In this document: piece after piece, positions 3,468-63,498 of the stretch
Layout: each line of letters opens with the position of its first letter
How positions within the stretch are numbered: the stretch's first letter is position 1
Assembly (NCBI RefSeq): GCF_964204865.1
Contig: NC_135260.1
Coordinates: 5,642,001 to 5,706,000 of the forward strand
Direction: 5' to 3'
DNA from: Styela clava
Taxonomy: Eukaryota
DNA length: 64,000 bases
The notes under the pieces: generated by a model
Seen by the model: the letters and a program-made list of their open reading frames with translations, nothing else
The model's database searches: none
Told to the model about the DNA's origin: nothing
Made by a program: the position numbers and the translations under genes

Positions 3468-6424
3468 ATGTGGAAACGTTCAAAACTCTTCAATTGCAAA
3501 TGGTTGTTTATCATGATAATTGGTGAGATCTTACTTACATAAATAATTCTTACAAAATTACAACTATGGGGAGGCATAAGTATTGCTTCACATTAATTTG
3601 ATAACAGCAAATTTTATTTTAAATTTTTTTTTTTGTCCAATGAATTTGCCTCGATATTAAACCAATCACAATAAATTAGAGATCACATTATGAAAATTTT
3701 AATATGATTTTTCAATTTCTCAAGTGTTTAAAAACAGGAATAAAAAAGTTTCATACATTATATTAATAGCTTAGTTAAGACTTTGTACGTATTACAGATA
3801 TAAACAGATTACATCATTAAAATATGGAGGTCTTTCAATTCCGAAAAATTCAATTTTGAATGCAATTGATCTAGTTTTTGTAATCCTTATAGTACTCATC
3901 ATTGGTCTGAATGGAGCACGAACATGCACTGATTGTCGCAGTGTAACGCTTAGTACAGAGAACAAGAATATCATACATGGACCAAGTAATGAATACAACT
4001 GCAACTGTGATTGGACAATACCAACAAGTATGGAGACAGATCATGAAACTGCAGTTGTTCTGTTGTTACAAAATGTTTCACTTCCAAAGACAACTAGTAG
4101 TGGAAGTATAGACTGCAGCGGAGAAATCAGACTCCCAAGTAAGTTTTAACTGATGTAAGTAGGCTATTCAAGGATGACATCTCCAACATCAAAACATTCG
4201 TTTACTTGACAATATTAATTTGTTTCATGCAGGATGGGATGGATATAAATGTGAATTTCCAAGCAACTACTGTCTTGCATTTGCAACTGCATCAACCGTT
4301 TGCAACATCAACAAAATCAGAGAGAAAATTTCAGTTGCAAATCACACCTGTGATTCAATCATTCCGTGGAATTATGCTGGAGGAAGCCCATACAAGATAC
4401 ATTACTATGCAGCAAACCGTGCTGGTTACACTAAATACTTCACAATACAATACCATGTAATAGATTGCAGACCAACAACAACCACACCTGCACTCAGTGA
4501 GTAAATTCAATATTTTTATGCAATGCTTAATCATGTCTTATGCTCAAGTAGTCACAGATATGCCAATCTATAAAGAACCATAATTATCAAACCCGGGTGA
4601 GGTGGTGGGATGAGGGGAACCTGAGATGTGTAACCTACAACTGGAGTGGGCAAGGTTTTGGACTAGGGGCCAGAAATTTTGCCCATCTAGAATGACGGGC
4701 CATGTAAGTATAACGTGAAAAGTCACATTTTATGAACGATACTTAGTGTTACAAAAGCAAAAGTGGAAAACAATAAGTCTCATGCTAAAACTAAATCAAT
4801 CGCAATCTCAACAAATTCCTTGAGCTATTTTTAGCTAAAATATCAAAATTTAGTTTTAGTTTGGTTATGGCAGCATCAGGCGGGCCAAATTGAACTACCA
4901 AACGATCCGGATTTGGCCCGCAGGCTATAGTTTGCCCATGTCAGTCCTACAATGTGAACACAGTTTAAGTGTAACAACTTAACCCTGTGGTAACACTAGT
5001 GGTACGTACGTGGAAGCTTTCAAGTGGTACGCGAGTAGTTTGAATTATTGCAACAATTAACTTTTGAGTTGGCTAAAATATGGCAACAACGGGTTTATAT
5101 CAGCAGTTCTTGTTTTGAGACAGCCCTCGCCCGCTACTGCCCACCTAAAACGAAACAATGGACAAAACCTTCAACCCCTGATGGCAATCAACGCAAATTC
5201 TATCGTGATTTTGCACGCAATTAACACGTTGTTACTGCATAAAATAAATACTTCGAAACTTTGCAGGAGATCTAAAATGGATGTAGTGCTACATAAAATA
5301 CTATCATAGCGCGTTTCTTGTGCCATGGTTCCCCACCACAAAATAAAGTTTTTTCGGTGGTACGCGGCCAGAGTAAAAAGAACAAAAGTGGTACCGGTCA
5401 GTGGAAGATTGAGAACCGCTGCCTTAACCAATAAGGCCAGGCGATCATGCCCATATTGCTCTTGTTGAAACGATATAACATAATTTCAGGATGTGAGAAT
5501 CAAACTTTTATTACAAAATTTTAGCCACGGTAACTGAGCAAGCAACAACAACAGCAACTCATCAAAAAGATACATCATCTAATAAAATAGACTTTGACTC
5601 AACCAGTGAATCAACCAGAACATCTGGCAATGTTCAATGTTCAACTGAAAACAGTGAAAGCTGCAGCTGCCAAACATCACTGATCATCGCTATCCCAGTA
5701 TCAGGAATTGTGAGTTTGATCGTTGGGGCTTTGTTGACGTTCATAATACCAAGGTAAGCATAGATATTGTATATTAAATGAATGTCAATGAAAATGCATA
5801 AATTACCAAGTGGGCAATCTATCAAGTACAAAAAAATGTGTGCCACTCTGCCTCAGGGTTGACAAAATTTGAATACAAGTTTGAAAAAATAAAACCCAAT
5901 TTCAGCCAATTTTGTATAACAAATTATTTCGTTGAAAATGTTGCCATTTGCAAAATCCAAGTTTCATGGAAAACTTTTGGATACATCTTTTAACTCTGAT
6001 GCCAAAAAAATTTATATCAACTACAGTCTCGGATCCAATTCCAGCTAAATATGACAAACTTGACTGTTTATCGTAGATTCAGTGACGTCAGAAGCAGATA
6101 TTAAAACAGCAAATGATTACCGGTAGTCTCAATTACAGTATCAAGTAAATACATATAGTAATTATTAACTCAGAATCTCAGATTATATTTCTATCAAACA
6201 CCAGGTATTGCAATAACAACAAGAAGAAACCAAAGAACAACGATTCAATGGAAATGGGAAGCATTCAACATCAGCAGCCAACTGTCCATGAACGAACAAC
6301 ATATGAAAACTACACACCAACATCAGATGAAAGTGGATATGAAGTTCCGATTCCAGTTGATAACAAGAATGAACAACAATATGAGATTATAACAACTGGA
6401 AAGGAATATCAATATGATAATTGA
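3468..6424 (+). CDS. Copy 1: CUB-like domain type I membrane receptor with Tyr-motif tail, full length (~337 aa)
   Basis: Exons 3468-3522, 3893-4138, 4233-4496, 5525-5753, 6205-6424. All introns are GT-AG with phases 1,1,1,2 and the frame is open. Signal MWKRSKLFNCKWLFIMII; CDWTIP...YFTIQY; TM SLIIAIPVSGIVSLIVGALLTFII; tail YENY, one YEVP unit, YEII, YQYDN. Confidence 0.88.
4641..4944. mobile_element. hAT-like MITE in intron 3 (also at 10918-11222, 21261-21564, 57320-57634, 62888-63141)
   Basis: Ends C(A/T)GGAGTGGGCAA and TTGCCCATGTCAG. The 8-bp TSD tcctacaa is perfect in copy 4. Confidence 0.65.
4985..5421. mobile_element. hAT-like insertion specific to intron 3 of copy 1
   Basis: Absent from paralogous introns. 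Right end ttgagaaccgctg, TSD acttaacc/ccttaacc. Confidence 0.75.
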
Positions 6425-8748
6425 AAGCTTGGACATATCTTTTTTAAAAGTCACAAACTATGCCACAGAAATTTTGTAACATAAATTTTGGCAAAAATAT
6501 GAACTAAACTTTGATCGGCTCTCCGAAACAATTTAGAAGTTGTTCGTATCTGTGATATATTCTTCAACAACGTTTTACATATTAAATTATATCAATTTAC
6601 AATTATCTATAGGTAATACATTTGATTCGAAGAACTTTTCCATGCAGTGCCTTATCTGGGAAAAGTTGTAGCCCAAGCAGCCACTCAGCATAATCTACTA
6701 ATATAGCTAATCTGTGAGTGAGTGTGTGGACCAATCAAGAGCTTTGCATGATAGTGTCTAGATCAGTGGTTTTCAAACCTATATGTACTGTAGCCCCTTT
6801 ACAGCACTCTATATATCACATCGCCCCCCGGCAAATAAAGAAGAAGACAAATTAATAACACAATTACAAAAATTATAATAATAGAACATGGTATTTGTCA
6901 GCCAAATTAGCTTGGGATCTTCAGCAAATTTATTCAATGTCCAGAGATAATTTGGTCAGGTACAGCCTTAGATGGGCAATTTGATAAGTCAAAGCTAAAA
7001 AAAAACAATTGTTCTACTTCTTCGTAAATAAGTAGGTATTTGAGATAACTTGCGACATAATTAGAACCTCTTTTTGCAAAAATTCATTTTGGTTTGTGAT
7101 AATTTTGACCATTTCAAGAAAGCATTACCCCCAATCCTACCTCCAATGTGACTCCTTTAACCCCAAGACGACGCTACTGGCTTCTTATTATAACAAAATC
7201 CAGTTTACACAACTGTTGATCGACAAATGTCGGTATTTTTACATGCTCCTTAATCACAATGAATTTGAAATGCTTCTATGATAAGTATTCTTGCCTGTTT
7301 TCAGATTTCTTCTTTGTTTCTTTTTCGATTTTTCAACTTGCTCTTGTATCAATAATGTTGTCAAACAGATTCTGTAAAATGAATGAAATAAATTATACAA
7401 ATGTCTGATATAGTTTGGCAGTTTTTATGAACAAAAGTCTGGTTAGTAAAGAAGACTTATTCAATAGAAAGGCAGGTTATATTCCAAGAAATCTTTCACT
7501 CTTATAAAGACTTGACCAATATAGTAGAAAAGAAAAGTAAATCACAATAATGATTAGTTTTCTTCATTTAGGGAGTACGAAAAGGTATCAATGTTGCAAT
7601 CACAAATCATAATAAAACTCTGACTCTGATCAAAGCCTCATCTACTGAAATATGAATGAAATAAAATAAAATAACATAATTTTTCCAGTTTCCAACTGTA
7701 CCAACTCCTTATTGTCAATTGAAGGCAAATAAAAATAAATTTGATCTCAAAAGCTATATAATCTACCATTTATGGTGACTAAAGATATAGCTCCAACTCA
7801 AAATAAACGCAGGAATTCATTGCTTAATCACCTAACATTACTATAATTTAAACTAATAAACTGATAAGCAAAAATAAATGTCAGTATTACTAAAAAAACA
7901 CATTATCTTGCAATGTAAGAATATCTGAAGATGGCATACCTCATGATTGTCAGTCGACATTCTGACACTTTCTTCAACTATGAGTGATAAATCAACTACC
8001 TATATACCAGAATCAACGACGCTCATAGTATGTTATATAATAAATATCTATAATCAGCAGTATTTGATGAAACAATCATTCGTGAGCATTGCTAATAATT
8101 TTAGTTTCCATTATTAGTCATAGGGGGAAACTCGTTTGAATTAATTATCCAGAATTTATAAGTTTGGACATTATTAGTAGATTGAAATAAATAACAACAA
8201 TTTACAAGATATGCAATTCAAGAGTCCTGCTACACACTAAGACAGATATATTTCTGTAACGTTTCATCTGACCGAAATCAGACTCCCTCAGACAAGCAGT
8301 TTACAACAATGACAAGAAAAGAACAATCATGCGGTTTAAATGTGACGATAAATAACTGTGACCTGAATAATGAATTAATTATTTATATTTAGAAACAGAT
8401 TGCGACGAAAAAAATACAATCAGACTCTTGAATTACATAGTATGAAATTTTTATTCCTGCTACAGCATTCTTGCATTATCCGCATACAATTCCACTAGCG
8501 CAAGGGCATTAAGAAAGGGTTGGGAGTTAGTCTCACGCAACCTGTACTGATAATTTACAAGATGTTCCAATAATAGGCAAATGACAATTTCAAGTTTCGT
8601 TTGGCTTCATTTTCCAGCAATGTGGTTGACAAGGGAATCTCACTTAAACTTAACAGTAGGTTTGACATCTCAAATGCTTTCTTTCAAAATGGCCTACAAG
8701 AGTATTTTATTATTTCTGAACAGGATCCAGTCCTATAGTTGAGTAATC

Positions 8749-9388: not shown

Positions 9389-12313
9389 ATGTGGAAACAT
9401 CCAAAACTCTTCAATTGCAAATGGTTGTTTATGCAGATAATTGGTGAGATCTTACTTACTTACAATAAGTTTAGTTACACATTCTGCTGTTACACAACCA
9501 ACTGTGATGGGCATTATTAGTTTCAAATTATTTACAATTACAGTAATTTGAAATTGTCTCACCAAATTATAATAAGCAAATTCTTTAAAATCAAATCGCG
9601 GACAATTGAGGTTATTTAACTTTTGTTTTCAAAACATATTTCACATCCAGATTCAATATAAAAATATTATATAATTTTAACTATTTTGTCTTTCAAATAC
9701 CTCGAATGTTTAAAAAAGGAATAATTAAGTTTTATACAATTATTCATGGATTTAAGAATCTGTAATACAATTGAAAAAGGATTATAAAATATATTTGATT
9801 TATAAATGTGTTTTAAAATTCGTAGTACTTCCAATTAAAAAAAATAAGTTCTATTGCAAATGAATAATCCCTTTTTAGCATTTAGTATTGATCTGAATGA
9901 AGCAGCACCCTGCACTGATTGCTCTAATATCATACTTGGAACAGAGAGCATCAATATAACATATGGACCGAATATGAATGAATACGATTGCAACTGTGAT
10001 TGGACAATACCAACAAGTATGGACACAGATCATGAAACTGCAGTTGTTCTGTTGTTACAAAATGTTTCATTGCCATTGACAACTAGTATTGGAAGTATAG
10101 ATTGCTCTGGAGGAATCAGATTCCCAAGTAAGCTGTATTATACTAATTACCGTACTGTTAATATACTACCGTATGCTATTCTAATATACAGCAACAATGA
10201 ATAAAAAACATCAGTAACTATAAAAATGCATAAAACCTTCACAGGAACGGATAGTTACAAATGTGAATTTTGGTGATCTCTGGTCTACAAAATAGGCTAA
10301 TAACAATGCAAACAAATATGTAATGTTTTAAATTAGAGGTTTGTAAAGCTGCAGTACATAAACAAAGCACACAGACGCTATGCTTATATTTATGACAAGT
10401 TGATACGACATTTGCGGACCCATGTACTTGATTACTGTATACCCTTCTAAAATACAGCAGCGATTAATAACAAAAAAACATTAGTAAATACCAAAAATGT
10501 ATCAACACTTTTATAGGCAATGCTCCTCACAAATGTGATTTTGCAATCAACTACTGTCTTGCATTTGCAACTGCATCAACCGTTTGCAACATCAACATAA
10601 TCAGAGAAAAAATTCCAGTTGCAAATCACACCTGTGATTCAATCATTACATGGAATAAAGCTGGAGGAAGCCCATACAAGATACAATATTATGCAGGAAA
10701 CTATGCTGGTTACACAAAATACTTCACAATACAATATCTTGTAATAGATTGCAGACCAACAACCACAACTGCACTAAGTGAGTAATTTTTTTTTATGCAA
10801 TGCTTAATCATGTCTTATGCTCAAGTAATCACAGATATACCAATCTATAAAAAACCATATTTATCACACCTGGGTGAGGTGGTGGGATGGGGGGAACCTG
10901 AGATGTGTAACCTACAACAGGAGTGGGCAAGGTTTTGGACTAGAGGCCAGAAAGTTTGCCCACCTAGAATGACGGACCATGTAAGTATAACGTGAAAAGT
11001 TACATTTTATGAACGATACTTAGTGTTACAAAAGCAAAATTGGAAAACAATAAGCCTCGTGCCAAAACTAAATTTAATCGCAATCTCAACAAATTCCTTG
11101 AGCTATTTTTGGCTAAAATATCAAAATTTAGTTTTAGTTTGGTTATGGCAGCATCAGGTGAGCCAAATTAAACTACCAAATAAGCCGGATTTGGCCCGTG
11201 GGCTGTAGTTTGCTTATGTCAGTCCTACAATGTTAACACAGTTCAAGTGTAACACCTTAACCACTAAGGCCATACGATCACGCCCATATTGCTCTTGTTG
11301 AACAATATAACTCAATTTCAGGATGTGAGAGTCAAACTTTTATTACAAAATTTTAGCCATGGTAACTGAGCAAGCAACAACAACAGCAACTCATCAAAAA
11401 GATACATCATCTAAAAAAATATACTTTGACTCAACCACTGAATCAACCAGAACATCTGGCAACGTTCAATGTTCAACTGAAAACACAGAATGCAGCAGTT
11501 CCCAAACATCACTGATCATTGCTATCCCAGTATCAGGATTCATGGGTTTGATCATTGGAGCTTTGTTGATGTTCATAATACCAAGGTAAGCATAGATATT
11601 ATATAATAAATGAATGTCAATGAAAATGGATAAATTACCAAGTGGGCAATCTATCAAGTACAAAAAAAATGTGTGCCACTCTCCACCTGAGAGTGATACC
11701 TGCTTCAAGAATGACAAAATTCAAATACAAGTTCGAAAAAATAAAACCCAATCTCAGCCAATTTTGTATAACAAATTATTTTGTTAAAAATGTTGCCATT
11801 TGCAAAATCCAAGTTTCATGGCAAACTATTGGATACATTTATTGACTCTGATGACAAAAAAATTTATATTAACTACAGTTTCGGATCCAATTCCAACTAA
11901 ATATGCCAAACTTGACTGTTTATCGTAGATTCAGTGAAGTCAGAAGCAGATATTAAAACAGCAAATGATTACCGGTAGTCTCAATTACAGTATCAAGTAA
12001 ATACATATAGTAATCATTAACTTTGATTATATTTCTATTAAACACCAGGTATTGCAATAACAACAAGAAGACACCAAAGAACAAAGATTCAATGGAAATG
12101 GGAAGCATTCAAAATCAGCAGCCAACTGTCCATGAACGAACAACATATGAAAACTACACACCAACATCAGATGAAAGTGGATATGAATATCTGAATCAAG
12201 TCGATAAAAAGAATAAACAAAGTGGATATGAAGTTCCGATTCCAGTTGATAACAAGAATGAACGACAATATGAGGTTATAATAACTGGAAAGGAATATCA
12301 ATATGACAATTGA
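9389..12313 (+). CDS. Copy 2: CUB-like membrane receptor, full length (~352 aa)
   Basis: Exons 9389-9443, 9879-10127, 10517-10777, 11357-11585, 12049-12313, open frame. Two tail units (SGYEYL and SGYEVP). Confidence 0.88.
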
Positions 12314-15252: not shown

Positions 15253-16756
15253 ATGAGGAAACATTCAAAACTCTTCAATAGCAAATGGTTGTTTATGCAG
15301 ATAGTTGGTGAGATCCCACTTACATAAATAGTTCCAAATCAAGAAATAAATGTACATTTGTTACCCAAAAACATAGTAGCCTGATGAATTCTCATCCAAA
15401 GTCATTCATGAAATAATAATTTTAATATTAGATTTTCATTAATATAAGATTTCTAAATTGTTTAAAAAGAAGAGTAATGGAGTTTTATACAATATAATTC
15501 TCAACCATGTATTAGATTGAGAAAATATCAATTCTATACATATAAACGTGTTTTGGGCTTCATGAGACTGATGAAAATTGGATAGATTTCGCAATGTTGT
15601 AATTGTAAAAACTTATTTCTTTATAGCACTAAGCATCAGTCTGAATGAAGCGGCATCCTGCACTGATTGTTCAAATCCAATACTTGGAACAACCACTTCT
15701 AAACCAAGTAAATCTTAAACAGCATAAAAAATTCAGTTTAAAAGTAAAACATCCAATCCTGAAATAAACTTTCCTTTCAAATTACAGCAGCAACAAATGG
15801 ATGGGAAACAACAACAAAATATCCAGAAGAAATTTCGACAACACTCAAAGCTGAACAGACTACAAAGCTGAACGGTCTACAAACGGAAATTTCGACAACA
15901 CTGAAAGCTGAACCAAATACAAAAGACAAAAGTAATGAAATTTTATTTGTCAAAACAATAGCAATTATCCAATACACAATCATAATAAAAACTAAACTTC
16001 ATGAATTTCAGTTAGTGAAGCTGAGCAGCAAACAACACTATCTGATTCAGACAGAACTGAATCTCATTCAACAACTGATTTGGACAAAAACATCACAGTT
16101 ACCACGGAAACCAATGGAAGTTCTGATTTATTGACAATTGCAATTCCATTGTCAGGAATAGTTGCTTTTATCTTGGGAGCTTTGTCAATCTTTGTCATAC
16201 GAAGGTAACAAGTAAAACAACACATAGTAGCAATAATTTCTCCACAATACTTTCACTTTGAATATCGTTTTGAAAATTCGGCGCAATTTCAAGGTTTCGT
16301 TTGAATGTGGTTGAACAATATGCTAATAAATATTTTTATTAATATTTTGAACCCAGGTATTGCAACAAAAACAAGAAACCGAAAAAGAAAGATTCAATGG
16401 AAATTGGAAGCATCCAACATCAGCAGCCAACTGTCCATGAACGAACAACATATGAAAACTACACACCAACATCAGATGAAAGTGGATATGAAGTTCCGAA
16501 TCAAGTTGATAACAAGAATGAACAAAGTGGATATGAAGTTCCGATTCCAGTTGATAACAAGAATGAACAAAGTGGATATGAAGTTCCGAATCCAGTTGAT
16601 AACAAGAATGAACAAAGTGGATATGAAGTTCCGATTCCAGTTGATAACAAGAATGAACAAAGTGGATATGAAGTTCCGATTCCAGTTGATAACAAGAATG
16701 AACAACAATATGAGGTTGTGAGAAGCGGAGCAGAATACCAATATGAAAATGCGTGA
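15253..16756 (+). CDS. Copy 3: receptor with in-frame deletion of the CUB-like domain, 5 tail repeats (~290 aa)
   Basis: Exons 15253-15307, 15627-15707 (start of exon 2 fused to end of exon 3, 81 nt), 15788-15931, 16012-16204, 16357-16756. Frame is open throughout. Confidence 0.82.
16481..16705 (+). repeat. Coding 45-bp tandem repeat x5 (SGYEVPxxVDNKNEQ)
   Basis: Unit agtggatatgaagttccga(a/t)tc(a/c)agttgataacaagaatgaacaa repeated five times. Confidence 0.95.
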
Positions 16757-20112: not shown

Positions 20113-22863
20113 ATGTGGAAACATTCAAAACTCTTCATTTGCAAATGGTTGTTAATCCAGATAATTGGTGAGATCTTACTTAGATAAATAGTTCCAAATC
20201 AAAAAATAAATGTACATTTGTTACCGAAAAAACATAGTAGCCTGATGAATTCTCATCCAAAGTCATTCATGAAATAATAATTTTAATATTAGGTTTTCAT
20301 TAATATAAGATTTCTAAATTGTTTAAAAATGGAGTAAAGGAGTTTTATACAATATAATTTTCAACCATGTAATGAGATTGAGAAAATAACAATTTTATAC
20401 ATATAAACATGTTTTTGGCTTTACAAGACTGTTAAAATATGGATGGATTTCTCAATGTTGTAATTGTAAAAACTTATTTCTTTATAGCACTAAGCATCAG
20501 TCTGAATGAAGCGGCACCCTGCACTGATTGTTCAAATACAATACTTGGAACAGAAAGTAAGAATATCACATATGGACCAAGTAATGAATACAACTGCAAC
20601 TGTGATTGGACGATACCAACAAGAATGGACACAGATCATGGAACTGCAGTTGTTCTGGTGTTACAAAAAAATTCAATGCTAATGACAACTGGTAGTGGAA
20701 TTACAGACTGCTCTGGGGAAATCAGATTCCCAAGTAAGCTATATTATACTATTCTAGCTATATTATACTATTACTATACTAATATACGACAACCGTACAG
20801 CAACAATTATTAATAAAAAAACATTAGTAAATACAAAATTGTATCAATACTTTTACAGGTACTGTTTCTCATAAATGCGACTTTCCAAGAAACTACTGTC
20901 TTGCATTTGCAACTGCATCAACCGTTTGCAACATCAACAAAATCAGAGAGAAAATTCCAGTTGCAAATCACACCTGTGATTCAATCATTTCATGGAATGA
21001 AGCTGGAGGAAGCCCATATAAGATACGATATTATGCAAGAAATTATGCTGGTTACTCAAAATACTTCACAATACAATATCTTGTAATAAATTGCAGACCA
21101 ACAACCACACCTGCACTGAGTGAGTAATTTTTTATTTATGCAATGCCTAATCATGTCTTATGCTCAAGTAATCACAGATATACCAATCTATAAAGAACCA
21201 TATTTATCACACCCGGGAGAGGTGGTGGGATGGGGGGAACCTGAGATGTGTATCCTACAACTGGAGTGGGCAAGGTTTTGGACTAGAGGCCAGAAAGTTT
21301 GCCCACCTAGAATGACGGGCCATGTAAGTATAACGTGAAAAGTTACATTTTATGAACGATACCCAGTGTTACAAAAGTAAAAGTGGAAAACAATAAGCCT
21401 CGTGCCAAAACTAAATTAATCGCAATCTCAACAAATTCCTCGAGCTATTTTTAGCTAAAATATAAAAATTAAGTTTTAGTTTGGTTATGGCAGCATCAGG
21501 CGGGCCAAATTGAACTACCAAACGTTCCGATTATGGCCCGCAGGCTATAGTTTGCCCATGTCAGTCCTACAATGTCAACACAGTTTAAGTGTAACATTTT
21601 AACCACTAGGGCCAGGCGACCACGCCCATATTGCTCTTGTTGAACGATATATCTCAATTTCAGGATGTGAGAATCAAACTTTTATTACAAAATTTTAGCC
21701 ACGATAACTGAGCAAGCAACAACAATAGCAACTCATCCAAAAGATACATCATCTTATGAAACATTCTCAACCACTGAATCAACCAGAACCGCTGACAACA
21801 TTCAATGTCCCATTGAAGACTGTGAATGCACCAGCACCCAAGTATCAGAGGAGAATACAGTACCAAACTATTCTCAAACATCACTGATCATTGCTATTCC
21901 AGTGTCAGGAATTGTGGGTTTGATCATTGGAGTTTTGTTGACACTCATAATACCAAAGTAAGCATTGATGGTATAAATTAGATGAATATCATTTATGTTA
22001 CTCAAGTATGCTTGAATACAAGATATCAACAAAGGATTCAACCCAGTACTGTTAAGTCAGTGATAATCTCCATCTTCTGATTGCAAGATTACCAAAATTC
22101 TAACCCAGTCTCAAGCTGCTAATCATGAGTCTACAAGATTTTGACCTCAACTCTCAACTCCACAAATAATAAAAATGACTGACTCTATCTTCTGATGCCT
22201 ATGTTCTATTGAATCAAGTTGATTTTACCAATCTAATTCAAAGTTTAGAGAAAAAAACATAGTACTGTATCCAGATACTGCTGGATGACAATATTTTAAC
22301 TTTGATCATTGTGGAAGTTGCAAGCCTCATTAGTTTCAATTAGAAACGCTAATGACTATAGAATCTTAATAATTTATAATTTTAATTATAACTATTGAAA
22401 CTTGAACAACTAACTCCAGCCATAGTGCATGATTGCCAACAGGTAAATTCATGTTGATAATAAATGGAACACAACCAGTGTTAGCAGCCATGTTTCCAAT
22501 AGAAGCCTCAAATATCAAATTCACATTTTTGTGTGGGACCCAGTGAGGTAATGAAGCAAATGTCAAAATTAAAAGTGATTAGTCTCAGTGACTCTATCTA
22601 TGAATTATTCATCAACTTAGATTATATTTCTATCCAACACCAGGTACCGCAACAACAACAACAAGAAACCAAAGAACAAAGATTCAATAGAGATTGGAAG
22701 CATTCAACAACAGCAGCCAACTGTACATGAACGAATAACATATGAAAACTACGCACTAACATCAGATGAAAGTGCATATGAAGTTCCGATTCCAGTTGAT
22801 AACAAGAATGAACAACAATATGAGGTTATAATAACTGGAAAGGAATATCAATATGACAATTGA
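20113..22863 (+). CDS. Copy 4: CUB-like membrane receptor, full length (~346 aa)
   Basis: Exons 20113-20167, 20488-20733, 20859-21119, 21699-21957, 22644-22863, open frame. One tail unit (SAYEVP). Confidence 0.88.
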
Positions 22864-31065: not shown

Positions 31066-32371
31066 ATGTGGAAATATTCAAAACATATCAATTGCAAATG
31101 CTTGTTTATGCAGATAATTGGTGAGAAACTGAGATCTTACTTGAGAAGTCGACATTTTTTAACTAAAAACATAATAACCTAATGAATTCTCATACAAATT
31201 TAAGCATAAAATATTGATTTTAATATGAGATTTTTATTATTAATATCAGATTGCTCAATAGTTTAAAAACAATAATAATGGAGTTTTACACATTATACCT
31301 TTTATTAAACCCCGAAATAAGATTGAAAAAATATCAATTCCAGGTACTCCTGTAGTATGTGAACCAAGATGGCAGACACCGGAACGTAGTATGTGTATCA
31401 GGTTAGAGTTAGGCCATAATTTCATCTATTGTATTTGAGCTATTGCGTCTATATAAAGGTGTTATGTGATATTGTGTCGATATAATGTGATGTTTTTATT
31501 AATACAAAAAAAACAAAAATTTCAGGTACAAATACTATGGGAGTCACTTGGCTAGTCCCCGAACTCGAAATAGAACTAAAATGGGAAAATTGGAATAAAA
31601 TTATGTCTTAACCCTAACCTGGTACACATACAACATTCCGAGGCCCGCCGTCTTGGTTCACATACTACGGGAGTACCCAATTATATAGGTATGAATACCA
31701 TTACCGTATATATAACTTATAAGTGTGTTTTTGGAAATATAAGCCTGCAAGAAAATTTGAAGGATTTTTAAATGTTATTGTGAAACATTTTATAGCACTC
31801 AGCATCAGTCTGAATGAAGCAGCAATATGCACTGATTGTTCAAATACAATACTCAGAACAGAGAGTGTGAATATCACATATGGACCAAGTAATGAGTACA
31901 GCTGCAACTGTGATTGGACAATACCAGAAGATATGGACACAGATCATGAAACTGCTGTTGTTCTGTTGTTACAAAATTTTTCATTACCGAGGACAACTAG
32001 TAGCAGTACTACACACTGCTCTGGGAGAATCAGATTTCCAAGTAAGTGTTCAGTACAATACAAGTATAAAGTAATTAAAAACAAATGATGCTTCACTTGT
32101 TAGAGCAATATAATTGTTCTACAAGTATCAAATGGTCTGGGACATTTGCAATTAACTCAACAATACTAATGTAATTTATGCAGGCACTGATGGATACAAA
32201 TGTGAATTTGCAAGCAACTACTGTCTTGTATTCGAAACTACATCAACCACTTGCAACATCAACAAAATCAGAGAGAAAATTCCAGTTGCAAATCACACCT
32301 GTGATTCAATCATTCCATGGGATAAAGCTGGAGGAATCCCATATAAGATACAATACTATGCAGGAAACTGA
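31066..32371 (+). pseudogene. Copy 6: 3'-truncated copy, either a secreted CUB-like fragment (~162 aa) or a pseudogene
   Basis: Exons 31066-31120, 31796-32041, 32184-32371. Homology stops at ...YYAGN with TGA at 32369-32371. No stalk, TM or tail exons follow. Confidence 0.75.
31343..31677. mobile_element. Related long-TIR MITE in intron 1 of copy 6
   Basis: About 80-bp inverted ends (ggtactcc.gtagtatgtgaaccaaga...). Degenerate 8-bp TSD caattcca/caattata; the empty site in paralogues reads caattcta. Confidence 0.75.
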
Positions 32372-33287: not shown

Positions 33288-35085
33288 ATGTGGAAACATT
33301 CAAAACTCTTCAAATGCAAGTGGTTGTTTATGCAGATAATTGGTGAGATCTTACTTACATTAAGTTTAGTTACACATTCTGCTGTTACACAACCAACTGT
33401 GATGGGCATTATTAGTTGTTATTCGAAAGTTTCAAATTATTTACAATTACAGTACCGGTAATTTCAAATTGTCTTATCAAATTATAATAAGCAACTTCTT
33501 TAAATTCAAATCGCGAGAAAGGAGGTTATTTAACTTTTGTTTTCAAAACATATTTCACATCCAGATTCAATATAAAAAATTATATAATTTCAACTACCTC
33601 GACTTTTAAATACCTCGAACGTTAAAAATAGGAATAATTAAGTTTTATACAATTATTCATGGATTTAAGAATCTGTAATACAATTGAAAAAGGATTATAA
33701 AATATATTTGATTTATAAATGTGTTTTAAAATTCGTAGTTATTCCAATTAAAAAAAAGTTATATTGTGAATGAATAACTTAATTTCTTTTTAGCATTTAG
33801 TATTGGTCTGAATGAAGCAGTACGATGCACTGATTGTTCACCTAAAATACTTGAAACAGAGAGCAAGAATATCACATATGGACCAGGTAATGAATACAAC
33901 TGCAATTGTGATTGGACAATACCAACAAGTATGGACACAGATCATGAAACTGCAGTTGTTCTGTTGTTACAAAATGTTTCACTGCCAAGAACAACTGGTA
34001 TTGGAAGTACAGACTGCTCTGGAGAAATCAGATTCCCAAGTAAGTACAATACTCGAATATGCTAGATCCATTAAATACTAAATCACAATTATTGGTCGAG
34101 AGACATAGCTGCAGTCAGGATTTTCCAAAAGGGAGTGTTCAAAATCAATAATAACCATGTAGAGCTGACGAAAACGATAGGCAGTTTTAACAAAAGTATG
34201 CATGTAAATTCGTACACAATAACAGCTGGTACTCTTCTGGTTATCCTGTAATTTTTAAAAGGGGGAGGGCGTTGAACCTGAAACACCCATCTGACTGCGC
34301 TACTGTCTACAAATATCAGATTTCCTGGTACCACTAATAATTTATTCAAGAATACTAATGTGCTTTTTACAGGCACTGATGGATACAAATGTGAATTTGT
34401 AAGCAACTACTGCTTTGTATTTGCAACTACATCAACCACTTGCAACATCAGCAAAATCAGAAAGAAAATTTCAGTTGCAAATCACACCTGTGATTCAATC
34501 ATTCCATGGAATACAGTTGGAGGAAGCCCATACAAGATACAATACTATGCAGGAAACCATGCTGGTTACACAAAATACTTCACAATACAATACCTTGTGG
34601 TGGACTGCAGATCTCCAACAGCCACTTTTAAACCAAGTATCATTAAGTCATAAATAGCAAAGAAACTTTTAGTTCAGCAGTAAAACATCCAAACCTAAAA
34701 ATGAACTTTTTTCTTTCAAATTACAGCAACAACAAATGGATGGGAAACAACAACAAAAAATTCAGAAGAAATTTCAACAACACTGAAAGCTGAACAAATT
34801 TCAAAGGACAAAAGTAATAAAAGTTTATTTATCAAAACAATAGCAATAATCCAATACACAATGACATTAAATTTAAACTTATTATAAATTCCAGTTACCA
34901 AAGCTGCGCAGCAAACAACAATATCGGATTCAGACAGAACTGTATCTCATTCTACAACTGATTTGGACAAAAACGCCACCGTTACCACGGTAACCAATGG
35001 AAGTTCTGCTTCACTGATGATCGGAATTCCAGTGTCAGGAATAGTTGGTTTTATCTTTGCAGCTTTGTCAATGTTTTTCATATAA
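33288..35085 (+). CDS. Copy 7: CUB-like domain, stalk and TM with no cytoplasmic tail (~280 aa)
   Basis: Exons 33288-33342, 33794-34039, 34373-34636, 34727-34813, 34895-35085. TAA at 35083-35085 sits where paralogues have CAA/CGA, right after the TM. The tail exon is absent and nested transposons occupy its place. Confidence 0.75.
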
Positions 35086-45915: not shown

Positions 45916-48260
45916 ATGTGGAAACATTCAAATCTCTTCAATTGCAAATGGTTGTTTATGCAGATAATTAGTGAGATTTTACTTACTAAAACTAAAAGCT
46001 AAAAATGAACAAATAAATGTACATTTGTCAATTAAAAACATAATAGTCCAATGTATTCTCATATAAATTTATTCATACAATAAATATTTTAATATTAAAT
46101 TTTCACTAATATTATATCGCTCAATTGTTTGAAAACAAGAGAAATAGAGTTTTATACATTATAACTTTTAAATTCTGTAATAAGATATGGAATATATAAA
46201 TATATGTATAAGAGCATTTTGGCAATATAAGCCCGCAAAAAAATTTGGATTGTTGAAATTTTATTGTAAAACTTTTCATAGCACTCAGCATCAGTCTGAA
46301 TGAAGCATGGGGACCATGTGCTGATTGTCCCAATATCATACTTGGAATAGAGAGTAAGAATATCACATATGGACCAAGTAATGAATACAACTGCCAATGT
46401 GATTGGACAATACCAACAAGTATAGAGATAGATAATGAAACTGCAGTTGTTCTGTTGTTACAAAATGTTTCACTGCCGATCACAACTGGTACTGGAAGTA
46501 TAGACTGCTCTGGGTCAATCAGATTCCCAAGTAAGCGTATATTATACTATTTTACTATTACTATACTACCGTACAGCAACAATTAATAAAAACATCACTA
46601 AATACATAACTATATCAATACTTTTACAGGCACTAATTCTCATAAATGTGATTTTCCAAGCAACAACTGTCTTGCGTTTGCAACTTCATCAACCATTTGC
46701 AACATGAACAAAATCAGAGAAAATATTCCAGTTACAAATCACACCTGTGATTCAATCATTCCATGGAATAACGTTGCAAGAGGAAGCCCATACAAGATAC
46801 AATACTATGCAGGAAACCGTTATGGATACACAAAATACTTCACAATTCAATATCTTGTGATAGATTGTAGACCAACAACAACCCCACCAGAAGCAGGTAA
46901 GTCATATACTTCTTGGTTTGCACATCTACACCAACACATAATTGTTTAATTCTCATAATGAAGATAAATTTATTTTCAGCGACAACAATGCAACAGAAAC
47001 AAACAAAAAAGGTTCCATTAACACTTGGAAGAATTATATGTGAAACAACAACTTTTGAAACCACCAAAATTACTGGTATGAATGAATCAAGTAAGTTCAT
47101 AAGTTTGCTTGTACGTCATAATTTTATGTCGATTTTCCTTATTTTAGTTATATTACCAGTTCAGAGACTGTCTGTGTTAGCCAAGTGAATATAAATAACC
47201 CTGCCTATAGGCTTTTGTCCCTTGATGTAAAAGTAGGGGAAAAAGATTAGTTACCTCCATATTGGTACACATACTTCTGGAGTGCCGTTGTTTTAAGATC
47301 AAATTCCTTGGATTTGTAAATAATCCTGTGTGAGATGTTTGACAGTTCAATAAAGAGTTTCTCTCCAAGATTCTGTTTTTCCAAACACTAGTAGATACTT
47401 ACCCAGCAGTGGCTGGCTGATTGTGTGTTCAGAGCGTAAGGCAAATGATACGTCTTGAAAAGCTATTCCAGTTGTAAAAAATCACTAAAGCCAAACAATT
47501 CTTTTCTAGAAATGACTACAAACACAAAAGAAACTGCCAGTGATCAAAAAATGTATAGAAAACTCAGATTCTGCATCCCTAACAATGATTGCAGTAGGTA
47601 CATCATCAGGATTTATTGTAGGAATCATCATCGGAGTTTTGACAACTTGCTTGATTCAGAGGTAAACAAGACAATTTACTGTTTTGTAAAATTAAAATAT
47701 TTCAAGAGCAATAAACTATTTAGTTTAGCTTATTTGATGCTCAAAAACAAAAAAAAAACTTTTGGAAATGGCTGTTCTAAGTGCTAACTTAACCAATTCA
47801 TTATTACCAAAACTTTATTAAAACCATAAAAAAAATTTTTTTTGATGGAAGATCGTATTTTACACTCGTTTGATGGATAATCTGCTTGATAAATAATAAA
47901 AATCTTCAATTTGTATCATTTTATTCAATATTAGTGTAATGAAAATAATTACATTATAATCCAGTCAAATACAGTATAAAAGGCTGTCAATGCAAATGTC
48001 AGTGCACCGTAATCATATTATTAAAAGTTGTAAAAATTATTGTAATTTGTAGATTATTGAGAAAAAAGAAGCAGAAAAACCAAATGGAAATGCAGAGCAG
48101 TCAACATCATCAACATACCACCATGAAAAATGCAGAATATGAAAATCATGAACCAACTTCAAACGGAAACGGATACGAAGTTATAATTCCAGTTGATAAT
48201 AAGAATGAAAGACCATATGAAGAGATAATATGTGGGATGGAATCTGCATATGAAAAATAA
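45916..48260 (+). pseudogene. Copy 8: copy with the most divergent stalk and tail; apparent +1 frameshift before the TM
   Basis: Exons 45916-45970, 46282-46530, 46630-46896, 46980-47090, 47510-47661, 48053-48260. Exon 47510-47661 is 152 nt where 151 is needed. Removing one A from the A6 run at 47546-47551 restores the TM (LTMIAVGTSSGFIVGIIIGVLTTCLI) and the tail (YENH, YEVI, YEEI). Confidence 0.7.
47115..47286. mobile_element. Partial Merlin-like MITE in an intron of copy 8
   Basis: Matches the body and right TIR (...catacttctggagtgcc). Confidence 0.6.
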
Positions 48261-51730: not shown

Positions 51731-53801
51731 ATGGATTCAAAAATAAAAATGATGACCTGCCAAAGCAGCATATGGATTCTCCTTGGTAAGAACATTTTCC
51801 ATATAGAATACTAATAGGATTTATTCATATTTATTCTGGAAGGGAGCAAATCATCTTGTCATGTGACAAATTATGGCCTCTCTGCCAGTTCCATGTTGGA
51901 TATGGGAAGAGTTAACTAGTTTATCTCCCACAATTATTCAGTACCAAAAGCAGCACATATTACCGAAATTCTAGATATAGTGCTCAAAAGTGGGCTTAAC
52001 CTGTTCTGGTAGGACAACAAATATCTTGTACCAGTCCATGAAAAACAATTGATTGAAGGTGAACGGTACAGATGCTATGAACACACAACTGCACCGATAT
52101 AGTAAAACTAGCAGTCAAAATGAAGAAATCCGAAATGATCTTTATATATTAATTGTGAATATTGAAAATATTACACCAATCTACAGTAAGCATAAATTAT
52201 ACAGAATGAGAAATGAATACCTTGTATATTTTTTTCAGCTATTATGATCAATGTGAATGAAGCATATCAATGCCCTAGTTGTCCCAAAATAACACTTGGA
52301 ACAGAGAACAAGAATATCACATATGGACCAAGTAATGAGCGGGACTGCCAATGTGATTGGACAATACCAACAAGTATGGCCACAGATCACGAAACTGCAG
52401 TTGTTCTGTTGTTACAAAATGTTTCATTGCCAATGACGGCTGGTAGTGGAAGTAGAGACTGCTCAGGAGAAATCAGATTTCCAGGTGAGTATTCAATACT
52501 CTTACGCAGGTAAAACTAGTTGTTGATGAAAATAAACTTTGTGCAGGTGCTAGTGGACACAGATGTGATTTTGCAAACAACCAGTGTATTGTTTTTACAA
52601 CTGAATCAACCATTTGTAACATGAACATAATCAGAGAGAAAATTCCAGTTGCAAATCACACCTGTGATTCAATCATTCCATGGAATAATGCTGGAGGAAG
52701 TCCATATAATGTACAATACTATTCCAGAGGCTATGTTGGTTACACAAAATACTTCACAATACAATATCTTGTGGTAGATTGTAGATCTTCAGCAACAACT
52801 TTTAAACCAAGTAAGTCATAAACAGCAAAAACATTCAGTTTAACAGTAAAACATCCAACACTAAAAATGAATCTTTTTTTTCTCAAAATACAGCAACAGC
52901 AAATGGATGGGAAACAACAACAAAGAATCCAATAGAAATTTCGACAACAGAAAAAACTGAACGGACTACAAAAAACAAAAGTAATAAAAGTTTATTTGTC
53001 GAAACAATAGCAATCATCCAATACACAATCATAGTCAAAATTATTATAAATTTTAGTTACCGAAGCTGAGCAGCGAACAACACAATCTGATTCCGGCATA
53101 ACTAATTCTCATTCCATATGTGATTTGGACAAAAACATCACCATCACCACGGGAATCAATGGAAGTTCTGATTCACTGATGATCGCAATTCCAGTTTCAG
53201 GAATAGTTGGTTTTATCTTTGGAGCTTTGTCAATGTCTTTCATACAAAGGTAAGAAGTAAAATAACAGTAGCAATATTTTCCCCTCGTTACTTTCAATTT
53301 GTATATTGCTTTTGAATATTGTTTTGAGAAATAGGCATAAGTCATTCCGGGTTTTGTTCGAATATGATTAAACAATATGCTATTAAATATTTTTAACCCA
53401 GGTATTGCAACAAGAACAAGAAGAAATTGAAGAACAAAGATTCAATGGAAATGGGAAGCATTCAACATCCAGAGCCAACTGTCCATAAACGAACAACATA
53501 TGAAAACTACACACCAACATCAGATGAAAGTGGATATGAAGTTCCGAATCAAGTTGATAATAAGAATGAACAAAGTGGATATGAAGTTCCGAATCAAGTT
53601 GATAACAAGAATGAACAAAGTGGATATGAAGTTCCGAATCAAGTTGATAACAAGAAGGAACAAAGTGGATATGAAGTTCTGAATCAAGTTGATAATAAGA
53701 ATGAACAAAGTGGATATGAAGTTCCGATTCAAGTTGATAACAAGAATGAACAACAATACAAAGTTATGACAACTGGAAAAGAATATGAATATGAGAATTA
53801 A
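51731..53801 (+). CDS. Copy 9: full-length receptor with a distinct first exon, 5 tail repeats (~414 aa)
   Basis: Exons 51731-51785 (MDSKIKMMTCQSSIWILL, 55 nt, gtaag donor; inferred), 52239-52484, 52547-52810, 52894-52980, 53057-53249, 53402-53801, open frame. Confidence 0.82.
53529..53753 (+). repeat. Coding 45-bp tandem repeat x5
   Basis: Same unit repeated five times in the tail exon of copy 9. Confidence 0.95.
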
Positions 53802-56124: not shown

Positions 56125-58537
56125 ATGTGGAGACATTCAAATCTCTTCAATTGCAAATGGTTGTTTATGCAGATAATTGGTGAGATCTTACTTGCATAAA
56201 AGTTACACATAAACAAATAAGTTCCAAATCAACAAATAAATGTAATTTGTTAACCAAAAACATAATACCCAATGAATTCTCATCCAAATTTAACCATGAA
56301 ACAATAATTTAATTATAATATTAGATTTACATTATTATTAGACTGCACAATTATTTAAAAACAAGAATAATAGAGTTTTATACATTATAACGTTTAAACC
56401 CTGTAACAAGATAGAGGAAATATCAATTGTATAAGTATAAGCACGCTTTTAGCTTTATGACCCGCAAAAACATTTGCAGAATTTTTGAATGTGATTGAAA
56501 AACTTATTTCTTTATAGTGCTTAGCATCAGTCGGAATGAAGCGGCACCCTGCACTGATTGCTCCAATGAAATACTTGGAACAGAGAGCAAGAATATCACA
56601 TATGGACCAAGTAATGAACACAATTGCAACTGTGATTGGACAATACCAGAAGCTATGGACACAGATCATGAAACAGATCATGTTGTTGTTCTGTTGTTAA
56701 AAAATTTTTCATTACCGAGGACAACTGGTAGTGGAAGTACACGCTGCTCTGGAGAAATCAGATTCCCGAGTAAGTGTTCAATACAATACAAGTGTTCAGT
56801 AAAGTAATTAAAAACACATGATGCTTCACTTGTTAGAGCAATATAATTGTTCTACAAGTATCAAATGGTCTGGGATAATTGTAATTAACTCAACAATACT
56901 AATGTAATTTATGCAGGCACTGATGGATACAAATGTGAATTTGCAAGCAACTACTGTCTTGTATTCGAAACTACATCAACCACTTGCAACATCAACAAAA
57001 TCAGAGAGAAAATTCCAGTTGCAAATCACACCTGTGATTCAATCATCCCATGGAATAGAGTTGGAGGAAGCCCATACAAGATACAATACTATGCAGGAAA
57101 CTTTGCTGGTTACTCAAAATACTTTACAATACAATATCTTGTGGTAGATTGCAGACCAACAACCACACCTGCAATCAGTGAGTAATTTCATTTTTTATCT
57201 AATGCTTAATCATGTCTTATGCTCAAGTAATCACAGATATACCAATCTATAAAGAACCATATTTATAACACCCTGTTGAGGTGGTTAGATGGGGGGAACC
57301 TGAGATGTGTAACGTACAACAGGAGTGGGCAAGGTTTTTGGACTAGAGGCCAGAAATTTTGCCCAACTTGAATGACGGGCCATGTTAGTATAACGCGAAA
57401 AGTTACATTTTATGAACGATACTTAGTGTTACAAAAGCAAAAGTGGAAAACAATAAGCCTTATGCCAAAACTAAATTAATCGCAATCTAAACAAATTCTT
57501 TGAACTATTTTTTAGCTAAAATATCAAAAATTTAAAAATTTAGTTTCAGTTTGGTTATGGCAGCATCAGGTGGAACAAATTAAATTACCAAACGATCCAG
57601 ATTTGGCCCGCGGGCTGTAGTTTGCCCATGTCAGTCCTACAATGTCAACACAGTTCAAGTGTAACACTTTAACCACTAGGGCCAGGCGACCATGCCCAAA
57701 TTGCTCTTGTTGAACGAAATAACTCAATTTCAGGATGTAAGAATCAAACTTTTATTACAAAATTTTAGCAACGGTAACTGAGCAAGCAACAACAATAGCA
57801 ACTCATCAAAAAGATACATCATCTTATAAAACATACTTCAACTCAACCAGTGAATCAACCAGAACATCTGGCAACGTTCAATGTTCAACTGAAAATAGTG
57901 AATGCTGCAGCTGCCAAACGGCACTGATCATTGCTATCGCAGTATCAGGAATTGTGAGTTTGATCGTTGGAGCTTTGTTGATGTTCATAATACTAAGGTA
58001 AGCGTAGATAGGAAGCATAGATAAATGTCGATGGAAATGCATGAATTTACAAGTCCACCAAGAACTGCGCAATCCATCATGTATAAAAATATTTGACAAT
58101 AACAAAACATTTGGTATGAAAATGTTGCAATTTGCAAACTTATAGGTTTCATGATATACTTTTTGATAGATTTTTTGAGTCAACAACTACAGTTTCGGAT
58201 CCAGTTCCATCTAAAATTCCAAACTATCATTTCGTCGTAGATCCAGTGAGATGAAGAAGCAGATATTAAACCAAATACATGCATCTATCAACTAACTTAT
58301 ATTTTATCAAACACCAGGTATTGCAACAACAACAACAAGAAACCGAAGAACAAAGATTCAATGGAAATGGGAAGCATTCAACATCAGCAGCCAACTGTCC
58401 ATGAACGAACAACATATGAAAACTACACACCAACATCAGAGGAAAGTGGATATGCAATTCCGGATCAAGTTGATAAAAAGAATGAACAACAATATGAGGT
58501 TATAACAACTGGAAAAGAATATCAATATGACAATTAA
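56125..58537 (+). CDS. Copy 10: CUB-like membrane receptor, full length (~338 aa)
   Basis: Exons 56125-56179, 56518-56769, 56917-57177, 57769-57997, 58318-58537, open frame. Tail unit reads SGYAIP. Confidence 0.88.
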
Positions 58538-61613: not shown

Positions 61614-63498
61614 ATGTGGAAATATTCCAAATTATTCAAATGCAAATGGTTGTTTATGCAGATAATTGGTGAGATCTTACTTACATTAAGTTTAGTAACA
61701 CATTCTGCTGTTACACAATCAACTGTGATGGGTATTATTAGTTGGTATTCGAAAGTTTCAAATTATTTACAATTACAGTAATTTGAAATTGTCTCATCAA
61801 ATTATGATAACAACTTCTTTAAAATCAAATCGCGGACAATTGAGGTTATTCAACTTTTGTTTTCAAAACATATTACACATCCAGATTCAATATAAAAATA
61901 TTATATAATTTCAACTATTTTGTCTTTCGAATACCTCGAATGTTTAAAAAAGGAATAATTAAGTTTTATACAATTATTCATGGATTTAAGAATCTGTAAT
62001 ACAATTGAAAAAGTATTATAAAATATATTTGATTTATAAATGTGTTTTAAAATTCGTAGTATTTTAAAAAAAAAAGGGTATATTGCAAATGAATAACTCA
62101 ATTCCTTTTTAGCATTTGGTATTGGTCTGAATGAAGCAGCACAATGCACTGACTGTCCAACTACAAAACTTGGAACAGAGAGCAAGAGTATCACATATGG
62201 ACCAATTTATAAATACAACTGCTGGTGTGATTGGACAATACCAACAAGTATTGAGACAGATCATGAAACAGCAGTTGTTCTGTTGTTGCAGAATGTTTCA
62301 CTGCCATTGACAACTGGTAGTGGACATACAGACTGCTCTGGAGAAATCAGATTCCCAAGTTAGATATATTTTAAAACTACTCAACTATTACTACACTACT
62401 ACGTTATATACAATTCTAATATACAGAAACAATTAACAAAAAAAAACATTAATACCGGTAAATACAAAATTGTATCAATGCTTTTACAGGCACTGATGGA
62501 TACAAATGTGAATTTGCAATCAACTACTGTCTTGTATTTGCAACTGCAGTAACCATTTGCAATATCAACAAAATCAGAGAGAAAATTCCAGTTGCAAATC
62601 ACACCTGTGATTCAATTATTCCATGGAATAAAGCTGGAGGAAGTCCATATGAGATACAATACTATGCAGCAAACCGTGCTGATTACTCAAAATACTTCAC
62701 AATACAATATCTTGTAATAGATTGCACACCAACAACATCTGCACTGAGTGAGTAATTTTTTTTTTATGCAATGCCTAATCATGTCTTATGCTCAAGTAAT
62801 CACAGATATAGCAATCTATAAAGAACCATATTTATCACACCCGGGTGAGGTGGTGGGATGGGGGAACCTGAGATGTGTAACGTACAACAGGAGTGGGCAA
62901 GGTTTTTGGACTAGGGGCCAGAAAGTTTGCCCACCTAGAATGACGGACCATGTAAGTATAACGTGAAAAGTTACATTTTATGAACGATACTTAGTGTTAC
63001 AAAAGCAAAAGTGGAAAACAATAAGCCTCGTGCCAAAACTAAATTAATCGTTTTAGTTTGGTTATGGCAGCATCAGGTGGGACAAATTAAACTACCAAAT
63101 AAGCCGGATTTAGTCCGCGGGCTGTAGTTTGCCCATGTCGGTCTTACAATGTCAACACAGTTTAAGTGTAACACCTTAACCACTAGGGTCAGGCGACCAT
63201 GCCCATATTGCTCTTGTTGAACAATATAACTCAATTTCAGGATGTGAGAATCAAACTTTTATTACAAAATTTTAGCCACGATAACTGAGCAAGCAACAAC
63301 AACTCATCCAAAAAATACATCATCTGATAAAATATACTTTGATTCAACCACTAAATCAACCAGAACATCTGGCAAAACTCAAAGTCCTATTAAAGACTGT
63401 GAATGCGACAGCACTGAAACATCACTGATCATTGCTATTCCAGTATCAGGAATTGCGGGTTTGACCATTGGAGTTTTGTTGACACTCATAATACCAAA
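61614..63498 (+). CDS. Copy 11: CUB-like membrane receptor, partial (tail exon expected beyond the window)
   Basis: Exons 61614-61668, 62113-62358 (weak gttaga donor), 62490-62747, 63276-63498, open frame. The following intron resembles the last intron of copy 4. Confidence 0.8.

Follow-up and report, generated by a model that had tools for sequence, protein, structure and literature searches.

Variable germline receptor arrays are known on immunoglobulin (Ig), lectin and leucine-rich repeat (LRR) scaffolds. In the ceacam family (CEACAM1/CEACAM3, Xenopus) the genes are clustered and gene conversion adjusts the binding domains across tail classes (PMC5112662). The Biomphalaria GRC/PTC2 regions are clusters of hyperdiverse single-pass genes with haplotype-specific gene content, in which synonymous divergence is high, so that the diversity may stem from old lineages and not from recent selection (PMC7494358). 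The styelid ascidian Botryllus schlosseri has the FcoR genes, clustered type I receptors (PMC12582321, PMC12065747) with haplotype variation and several types of tyrosine-motif tails (PMC12582321). Here we analyse a window of 64,000 nucleotides of Styela clava (G000:C14:5642001-5706000), the whole stretch of DNA examined, which holds part of a tandem gene array resembling these systems in the features just named. The account that we favour, with a confidence somewhat better than even, is one of tandem variable CUB-like heads, shaped by gene conversion and selection on loops and set on two kinds of tyrosine tail, which together would make a polymorphic paired-type innate receptor array.

The main array extends from ~5.53 to 5.79 Mb on contig C14, where a sub-cluster follows at 6.16-6.19 Mb, and a single further gene is on C13. 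In the regions fetched we found 39 exon-2 copies, comprising 32 intact ectodomains and seven broken or incomplete ones, and 31 paralogs share on average 74% identity in the ectodomain. When each copy is assigned the nearest downstream tail, 24 have a class A tail, nine a class B tail, one another type and five none; similar ectodomains are carried on class A (24) and class B (9) tails, which is a trait of paired receptors of the CEACAM/LILR/KIR type. Class A tails contain YENY, one to several GYEVP repeats and QYEV/I, and 4 of the 24 have the YEVI/P-x10-YEEI form (class A2); in terms of motifs, class A2 is YxxI-x10-YxxI and class A1 consists of YEVP repeats plus one YxxI/V. Class B tails have NxxY and two YA/SVV motifs at the C-terminus, 29-33 residues apart, in the pairs CLYAVV/SIYAVV, ALYSVV/CVYAVV or CVYAVI/SLYAVV, and a class B tail query across the genome gave nine matches, all within this receptor family. 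S-x-Y-x-x-V, an extended consensus for the tyrosine-based inhibitory motif of immunoreceptors (ITIM), was found in 6/8 class B proteins scanned.

Residue and codon numbers follow P0002 (LOC144429949), a gene of five exons whose exons 2 and 3 (3893-4138 and 4233-4496) have GT/AG ends and which encodes a signal peptide, a ten-cysteine ectodomain, a Ser/Thr stalk, a transmembrane (TM) helix, without charged residues by eye, and a tyrosine-rich tail. The translation of exon 3 is 100% identical to the annotated protein. The exons of this reference copy are the following.

3468..3522, + strand: exon 1 of P0002, start of the signal peptide; RNA-like contigs span intron 1
3893..4138, + strand: exon 2 of P0002, end of the signal peptide and first half of the predicted CUB-like domain
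4233..4496, + strand: exon 3 of P0002, second half of the predicted CUB-like domain and start of the stalk; joint 4496>5525 with GT..AG
5525..5753, + strand: exon 4 of P0002, Ser/Thr-rich stalk and transmembrane helix; joint 5753>6205
6205..6424, + strand: exon 5 of P0002, class A cytoplasmic tail with YENY, GYEVP, QYEII and EYQY

The spliced joints 4496>5525 and 5753>6205 (the latter displayed as 5751>6203, cut +2) appear in RNA-like contigs from 3/4 runs of two studies, and these contigs cover the exons and leave introns 1 and 4 mostly empty. They are family members at an 85% cut-off, and the joints show splicing of family members, not of P0002 in particular; among the runs listed with family matches, none is recorded as RNA.

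The window contains nine ectodomain copies, eight complete and one ending at a stop inside exon 3. The first-pass annotation had described them as an invariant scaffold with hypervariable patches, and within the window the motifs it named are indeed fixed, CDWTIP and NHTCDSII in 9/9 copies and KYFTIQY in 8/9, i.e., in all eight complete ones. Across the family each motif is exact in only 24/32 intact copies and the ten cysteines are kept in 29/32, the scaffold being conserved rather than invariant. Every patch variant listed is present in the window sequence, and the 18 patch codons are hypervariable also in 23 intact copies from outside the window (nonsynonymous diversity, pN, 0.343 vs 0.118 elsewhere, permutation p=1e-4), although the patch before CxC varies only mildly there (pN 0.21). 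Further strongly variable sites lie beyond the listed patches, at 28-29, 56, 110-111 and 148 and in an indel-rich loop at 84-92. The variable segments are given below, with loop names and the ligand end as explained further on and with dN>dS standing for a replacement rate above the synonymous one.

3919..3948, + strand: variable N-terminal sites 28-29 and patch 34-37, at an exon edge, with a high synonymous rate too
3985..4005, + strand: patch 50-56, putative loop L3, with sites 53 and 56 variable
4087..4113, + strand: indel-rich variable loop 84-92, putative L5, masked in the selection tests
4235..4246, + strand: patch 102-105, where exon 3 begins, omega (dN/dS) ~0.9 with its own synonymous rate
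4253..4264, + strand: loop 108-111, putative L7, with dN>dS kept at codons 110 and 111
4373..4375, + strand: codon 148, in an inserted segment, with dN>dS, off the putative ligand end
4406..4423, + strand: patch 159-164, putative L9, with dN>dS at 163 in all three tree settings and at 161 on the single tree only

Regarding the fold, the ectodomain is predicted to be a CUB-like jelly-roll beta-sandwich with an insertion at ~119-153 and extra cysteines. The AlphaFold model of the ectodomain alone has a pLDDT of 83 and a pTM of 0.81, and its top superposition is Gpr126 (Z 9.2, root-mean-square deviation (rmsd) 2.7, 105 residues), the top 13 rows ranging over Z 9.2-8.1 and rmsd 2.5-3.7. The first 22 superposition rows (VIA) are CUB-containing proteins, some of them identified as such by us, and the full-length model agrees; atlas neighbours also include CUB clusters at 0.84-0.88, which is a lead only. 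Pfam gave no match on the ectodomain; matches to TMEM154, RIFIN and others were below the cut-off, on the stalk and TM, and were disregarded. The nearest folds include the CUB domains of neuropilin, Neto, Kremen and Gpr126, and with this in mind one could see here receptors for cell identity or for sensing (neuronal self-avoidance, cues for larval settlement), whose ligands would be one another or come from the environment. The tandem arrangement of variable ectodomains with shared tails is also reminiscent of clustered wiring receptors. We regard this as very unlikely, a shared fold being no proof of function and haplotype turnover, pseudogenes and two tail classes being more typical of immune clusters (PMC5112662).

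In Ca2+-binding CUBs the odd loops L3, L5, L7 and L9 face one way and often carry the Ca2+ or ligand site (PMC8051872). From the predicted strands and the CUB topology, and assuming that the N-terminal CxxC is tied to CxC, residues 51-54, 82-95, 107-111 and 161-167 would correspond to L3/L5/L7/L9. C33, C57, C93 and C107, present in 32/32 copies, are at positions plausible for the two disulfides, L2/L3 and L5/L7, that CUB domains conserve. The acidic Ca2+ ligands of loops L5 and L9 appear to be absent except for E96 in 20/32 copies: in the putative alignment only position 96 is acidic (E in 20 and D in 1 of 32), and 83-84 and 160-162 are non-acidic.

The first-pass annotation had explained the patches by diversifying selection on a ligand-binding face and had proposed an M7/M8 site-model test. 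In place of codeml we used codon models written for this analysis, on a FastTree topology with a single scale factor and naive empirical Bayes, with 31 sequences (the divergent A5528534 left out) and 143 codons, loop 84-92 being masked. Average omega was 0.57 and the M7/M8 test was positive (twice the log-likelihood difference, 2dL=115), as were M1a/M2a (2dL=89) and M8a/M8 (2dL=76), with 10-13% of sites in a positive class of omega 2.5-3; with segment-specific trees 2dL stayed at 63 for two segments and ~55 for four, and the 8 window copies alone gave p=0.011-0.069 only. Nevertheless, we do not accept standard site models as decisive proof of selection, because null data (omega<=1, variable rates, four segment trees, simulated for M1a/M2a only) reached the observed M1a/M2a value of 89 in 5/17 runs (range 24-154), and this class of models cannot decide. 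Three-class free-rate likelihood-ratio tests (2dL 29 and 45) were left unused, null and alternative having reached different optima.

These simulations favour another view that we find rather doubtful, namely that there is no selection for diversity at all, the patches being unconstrained surface whose depth reflects paralog age, with conversion stronger at exon centres than at exon edges. A fast-neutral class fits better (log-likelihood -5043.2) than M2a (-5055.2), 7/39 copies are broken, and synonymous divergence is also higher in the patches (0.28 vs 0.17); with separate synonymous rates the four patches have omega 0.76, 0.95, 0.88 and 1.14. This view fits less well with the dual-rate grid test (2dL 14.7, overall p ~0.04 to 0.18), in which P(dN>dS) on the single tree is at least 0.9 at codons 110, 111, 148, 161 and 163 and at least 0.95 at 110, 111 and 163. 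Codons 111 and 163 stay >0.95 in all three tree settings (161 is <0.8 with segment trees), and three sites at P of at least 0.95 are rare in null runs, 0/49 and 1/49. Codons 110, 111, 161 and 163 combine high replacement rates with low synonymous rates, and two of them, 161 and 163, belong to the inner part of exon 3 that looks homogenised (see below). Overall, the support for diversifying selection is weak to moderate: it comes from five codons with dN>dS, of which only 161 and 163 are inside the patches listed at first pass, and not from those patches as wholes. There is modest evidence of selection at a few L7/L9 codons, while the N-terminal and exon-3-start patches look constraint-free or old, not provably selected.

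As for the ligand-binding face, we took as the putative ligand end the N-terminal knot plus the loops mapped to L3/L5/L7/L9, 36 of the 143 codons. It contains 10/14 of the sites with M8 posterior >0.95 (p=1.6e-4); the odd loops alone hold 5/14 (p=0.035), and 4/5 dual-rate sites are within L7/L9 (p=0.0016). On the predicted model, then, the variable sites would form one face at the L3/L5/L7/L9 end.

The ectodomains mix across tail classes. Class B ectodomains are not one clade (approximately unbiased (AU) test, p=0.038 and 0.034), the exon trees are star-like (support for 3 and 4 of 29 branches) and a pairwise homoplasy index (PHI)-type test over all sites is significant (p=5e-4). Synonymous diversity decreases from 0.17 at the exon edge to 0.085 at the centre (rho=-0.29, p=5e-4), and the 3' part of intron 1, alignable in 91/465 pairs, has a divergence of 0.226 vs 0.158 at exon synonymous sites; intron 2, largely unalignable between lineages, was discarded as a neutral baseline. 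All this suggests exon-centred homogenisation by gene conversion, and therefore a lower synonymous baseline. The twofold gradient also speaks for the unconstrained-surface view, two of the patches being at exon edges. On the other hand, the patches are only 1-5 codons long, far below the identical tracts of 67-149 bp shared between paralogs. Selection that shields a loop from homogenisation raises both rates there, and for this reason a patch omega near 1 is compatible with selection and only fails to show it.

The databases also include an older annotation set. It presumably stems from a different assembly and animal, and the family was compared with it at the protein level only. Among eight family pairs sharing a locus id, four have an ectodomain far more diverged than the tail, three are near-identical and one is different throughout. 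In two shared loci the ectodomain is identical at 106/150 (71%) and 111/150 (74%) positions vs 162/175 (93%) and 142/155 (92%) for the rest; the lone C13 gene has 126/151 in the ectodomain and identical TM and tail, and the fourth pair is a case of exon 2 only. A distant relative is identical at 327/336. The C13 differences are enriched at paralog-variable sites (9/14 vs 16/137), as are those of two other loci (11/14 vs 35/138 and 8/14 vs 33/138), and 21/25 of the C13 variant residues are also found in C14 paralogs; such same-locus pairs, differing mainly at the same sites, again speak against unconstrained patches. For 7/11 older-set loci no ectodomain >83% identical was found among the 32 intact ones here, these loci being listed by 90% clusters and biased toward divergent ones. 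By these protein comparisons, the receptor array would be polymorphic between animals, with apparently large differences.

Such large apparent differences between individuals would also be expected of self/non-self recognition (hemocyte contact, gamete self-sterility), like fester/FcoR or Themis, in place of recognition of microbes. The class B tail is by eye like the FcoR1 tail of Botryllus, a styelid as Styela clava is. Fertilisation proteins of sea urchins and ascidians make use of CUB domains, and self-sterility occurs in Styela plicata (PMC9265791). We nonetheless judge this unlikely: the receptors lack an Ig or sushi domain, a scan of the flanks (long open reading frames (ORFs) only) identified no linked gene for a ligand, and ~39 paralogs at near-equal divergence would be more in keeping with a broad repertoire than with a single allelic determinant.

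Under the innate receptor account, the predicted CUB-like outer domain is likely the variable recognition head and gene conversion likely reshuffles heads between genes; conversion would hold the exon centres similar and leave the loops divergent, and selection probably drives a few loop codons apart. Judging from their motifs, the two tail classes would differ in the tyrosine-based signals that they send in innate defence. By the usual binding preferences of such motifs, tandem-SH2 phosphatases may be the partners of class B tails, and Nck/Crk/Syk-type proteins those of class A tails (YEVP repeats, YEV/EI). A more far-reaching version, possible and put forward tentatively, is that a solitary ascidian has a KIR/CEACAM-like paired system on a CUB scaffold in place of Ig, lectin or LRR, with loop cassettes swapped by gene conversion among ~39 genes, even between chromosomes, giving each animal largely private heads on activating- or inhibiting-type tails, one of them with the layout of the Botryllus allorecognition coreceptors.

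Several results weigh against this account. The four patches jointly have an omega of 0.92 and the odd loops jointly 0.74, and the dual-rate 2dL of 14.7 was reached by null data in 1/49 runs with one tree and 8/49 with recombination. Four of the 14 M8 sites (103-105 and 148) are off the putative face, and when restricted to third positions the PHI-type test is non-significant (p=0.084). Foldseek gave no match at E<=1e-3 (best E 5e-3 to 8e-3) and Pfam CUB (PF00431) no match in 10 family proteins at E<=3; nor was Pfam CUB matched at E<=0.01 in the distant members P0035, P0040 and P0045, or any PDB CUB sequence by the family alignment profile. The strict ITIM, I/L/V-x-Y-x-x-I/L/V (I/L/V at -2 as defined in PMC12582321), was absent from the 8 class B proteins scanned, and no canonical immunoreceptor tyrosine-based activation motif (ITAM) was found in the tails scanned. 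Botryllus FcoR1, with a similar paired motif, is thought to be activating (PMC12582321), so class B need not be inhibitory. Finally, shared locus ids may pair paralogs, not alleles.

The remaining ectodomain copies of the window, all with class A tails or none, are as follows.

9879..10752, + strand: copy 2 ectodomain, from the start of exon 2 through the last Cys, with a class A tail at 12086-12310
20488..21094, + strand: copy 3 ectodomain, class A tail at 22681-22860
31796..32371, + strand: copy 4 ectodomain, cut off by a stop in exon 3
33794..34608, + strand: copy 5 ectodomain, no tail found up to the next copy
46282..46868, + strand: copy 6 ectodomain, class A2 tail (YEVI-x10-YEEI) at 48075-48257
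52239..52782, + strand: copy 7 ectodomain, repeat-bearing class A tail at 53439-53798
56518..57152, + strand: copy 8 ectodomain, class A tail at 58355-58534
62113..62725, + strand: copy 9 ectodomain, tail just past the window end

Class A tail exons without CUB exons upstream are found at 16391-16750 and 27025-27249 of the window, and the annotated P0038 joins the signal peptide straight to stalk, TM and tail, skipping the ectodomain; the tail has a 45-bp coding repeat of variable copy number. Intron 3 contains a high-copy repeat (window 4650-4990) with a depth in the thousands. Elsewhere in the array, P0001 (G000:C14:5570044-5579762) is given in the annotation as a single protein of 624 aa, in which two CUB-like domains flank a hydrophobic stretch; it is probably either an annotation-made fusion of two genes or a tandem form. 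The class B tail at G000:C14:5562928-5563191 has a stop after the first YAVV motif, the second being lost. Two long ORFs of a long terminal repeat (LTR)-type retrotransposon (L019:539-5260; gag-like, and reverse transcriptase (RT), RNase H and integrase Pfam hits) separate exon 2 from exon 3 in the copy at C14:5776094. Exon-like pieces at L007:5387-5758 (-) and L022:4336-4770 (-), one within the array and the other in the left flank, have no Pfam hit and resemble an MTR4/SKIV2L2 helicase. Sushi and EGF exons (L028:776-1129 and 7977-8261) are neighbours of the 6.16 Mb sub-cluster; for the main array and its surroundings, the scan of long ORFs gave no sushi gene.

Of the distant members, P0035 and P0040 are at C14 19.05 Mb and P0045 is on another contig. 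The first two belong to a small second cluster (L035-L037, C14:19.04-19.06 Mb) with traces of more exons and other tyrosine tails, e.g., repeated YENL/I in P0040. Two database searches gave 33 and 39 protein matches, all "uncharacterized" Styela clava proteins, and no relatives outside S. clava were found among 1.84 billion representatives or in word-based searches, in which few tunicates may be included. The bacterial-type matches P0043 and P0044 were rejected as relatives, being repeat proteins without the Cys pattern. We found no description of this family in the literature searched, most subscription papers and bioRxiv supplements being outside its coverage, and the array is likely an undescribed immune-recognition system.

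If the innate receptor account is true, a CUB-based array with two tail classes adds a scaffold to those in use, in a close invertebrate relative of vertebrates, and supports the reuse of signalling tails while recognition heads get replaced. The loop codons, the lone C13 gene and the two tails would then be candidates for non-self recognition in solitary ascidians. The usual codeml-type test misleads in such arrays, as seen here, with our own codon models, in the null simulations of M1a/M2a.

Compared with the described systems, the array resembles Botryllus FcoR also in the tail: by eye, FcoR1 has NNIY and then two VYAIV, the last at the C-terminus, and class B has NEIY, LYAVV and IYAVVNK. 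However, the spacing between tyrosines (counted by eye) is 29-33 in class B vs 35 in FcoR1, and the FcoR core-2 motif [A/D]VYxxV at the C-terminus is unmatched by the class B motifs despite the similar layout (PMC12582321); such motifs being short, convergence of the two tails is possible. FcoR also differs in pairing with fester genes and in its ectodomain, IgV-sushi-2xC2 Ig instead of one CUB-like domain (PMC12065747); neither Ig nor sushi gave a Pfam match in the 10 family proteins searched. CEACAM paired receptors share with the array the clustering, the conversion between tail classes and the diversification of binding domains, but have Ig ectodomains, canonical ITIM/ITAM tails and tested opposite functions (PMC5112662). 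The Biomphalaria genes differ in being mapped to parasite resistance, and "CUB" is absent from the main text of that source (PMC7494358). Among CUB domains (neuropilin, C1s, MASP, cubilin, spermadhesin, Gpr126) the likeness is in the predicted jelly-roll and the putative odd-loop variation, whereas the family stands apart by its ~150 residues, ten cysteines, ~30-residue insertion and 10-20% identity. By analogy, the array would work like CEACAM-type receptors, snail PTC clusters and Botryllus FcoR, and yet it belongs to none of them.

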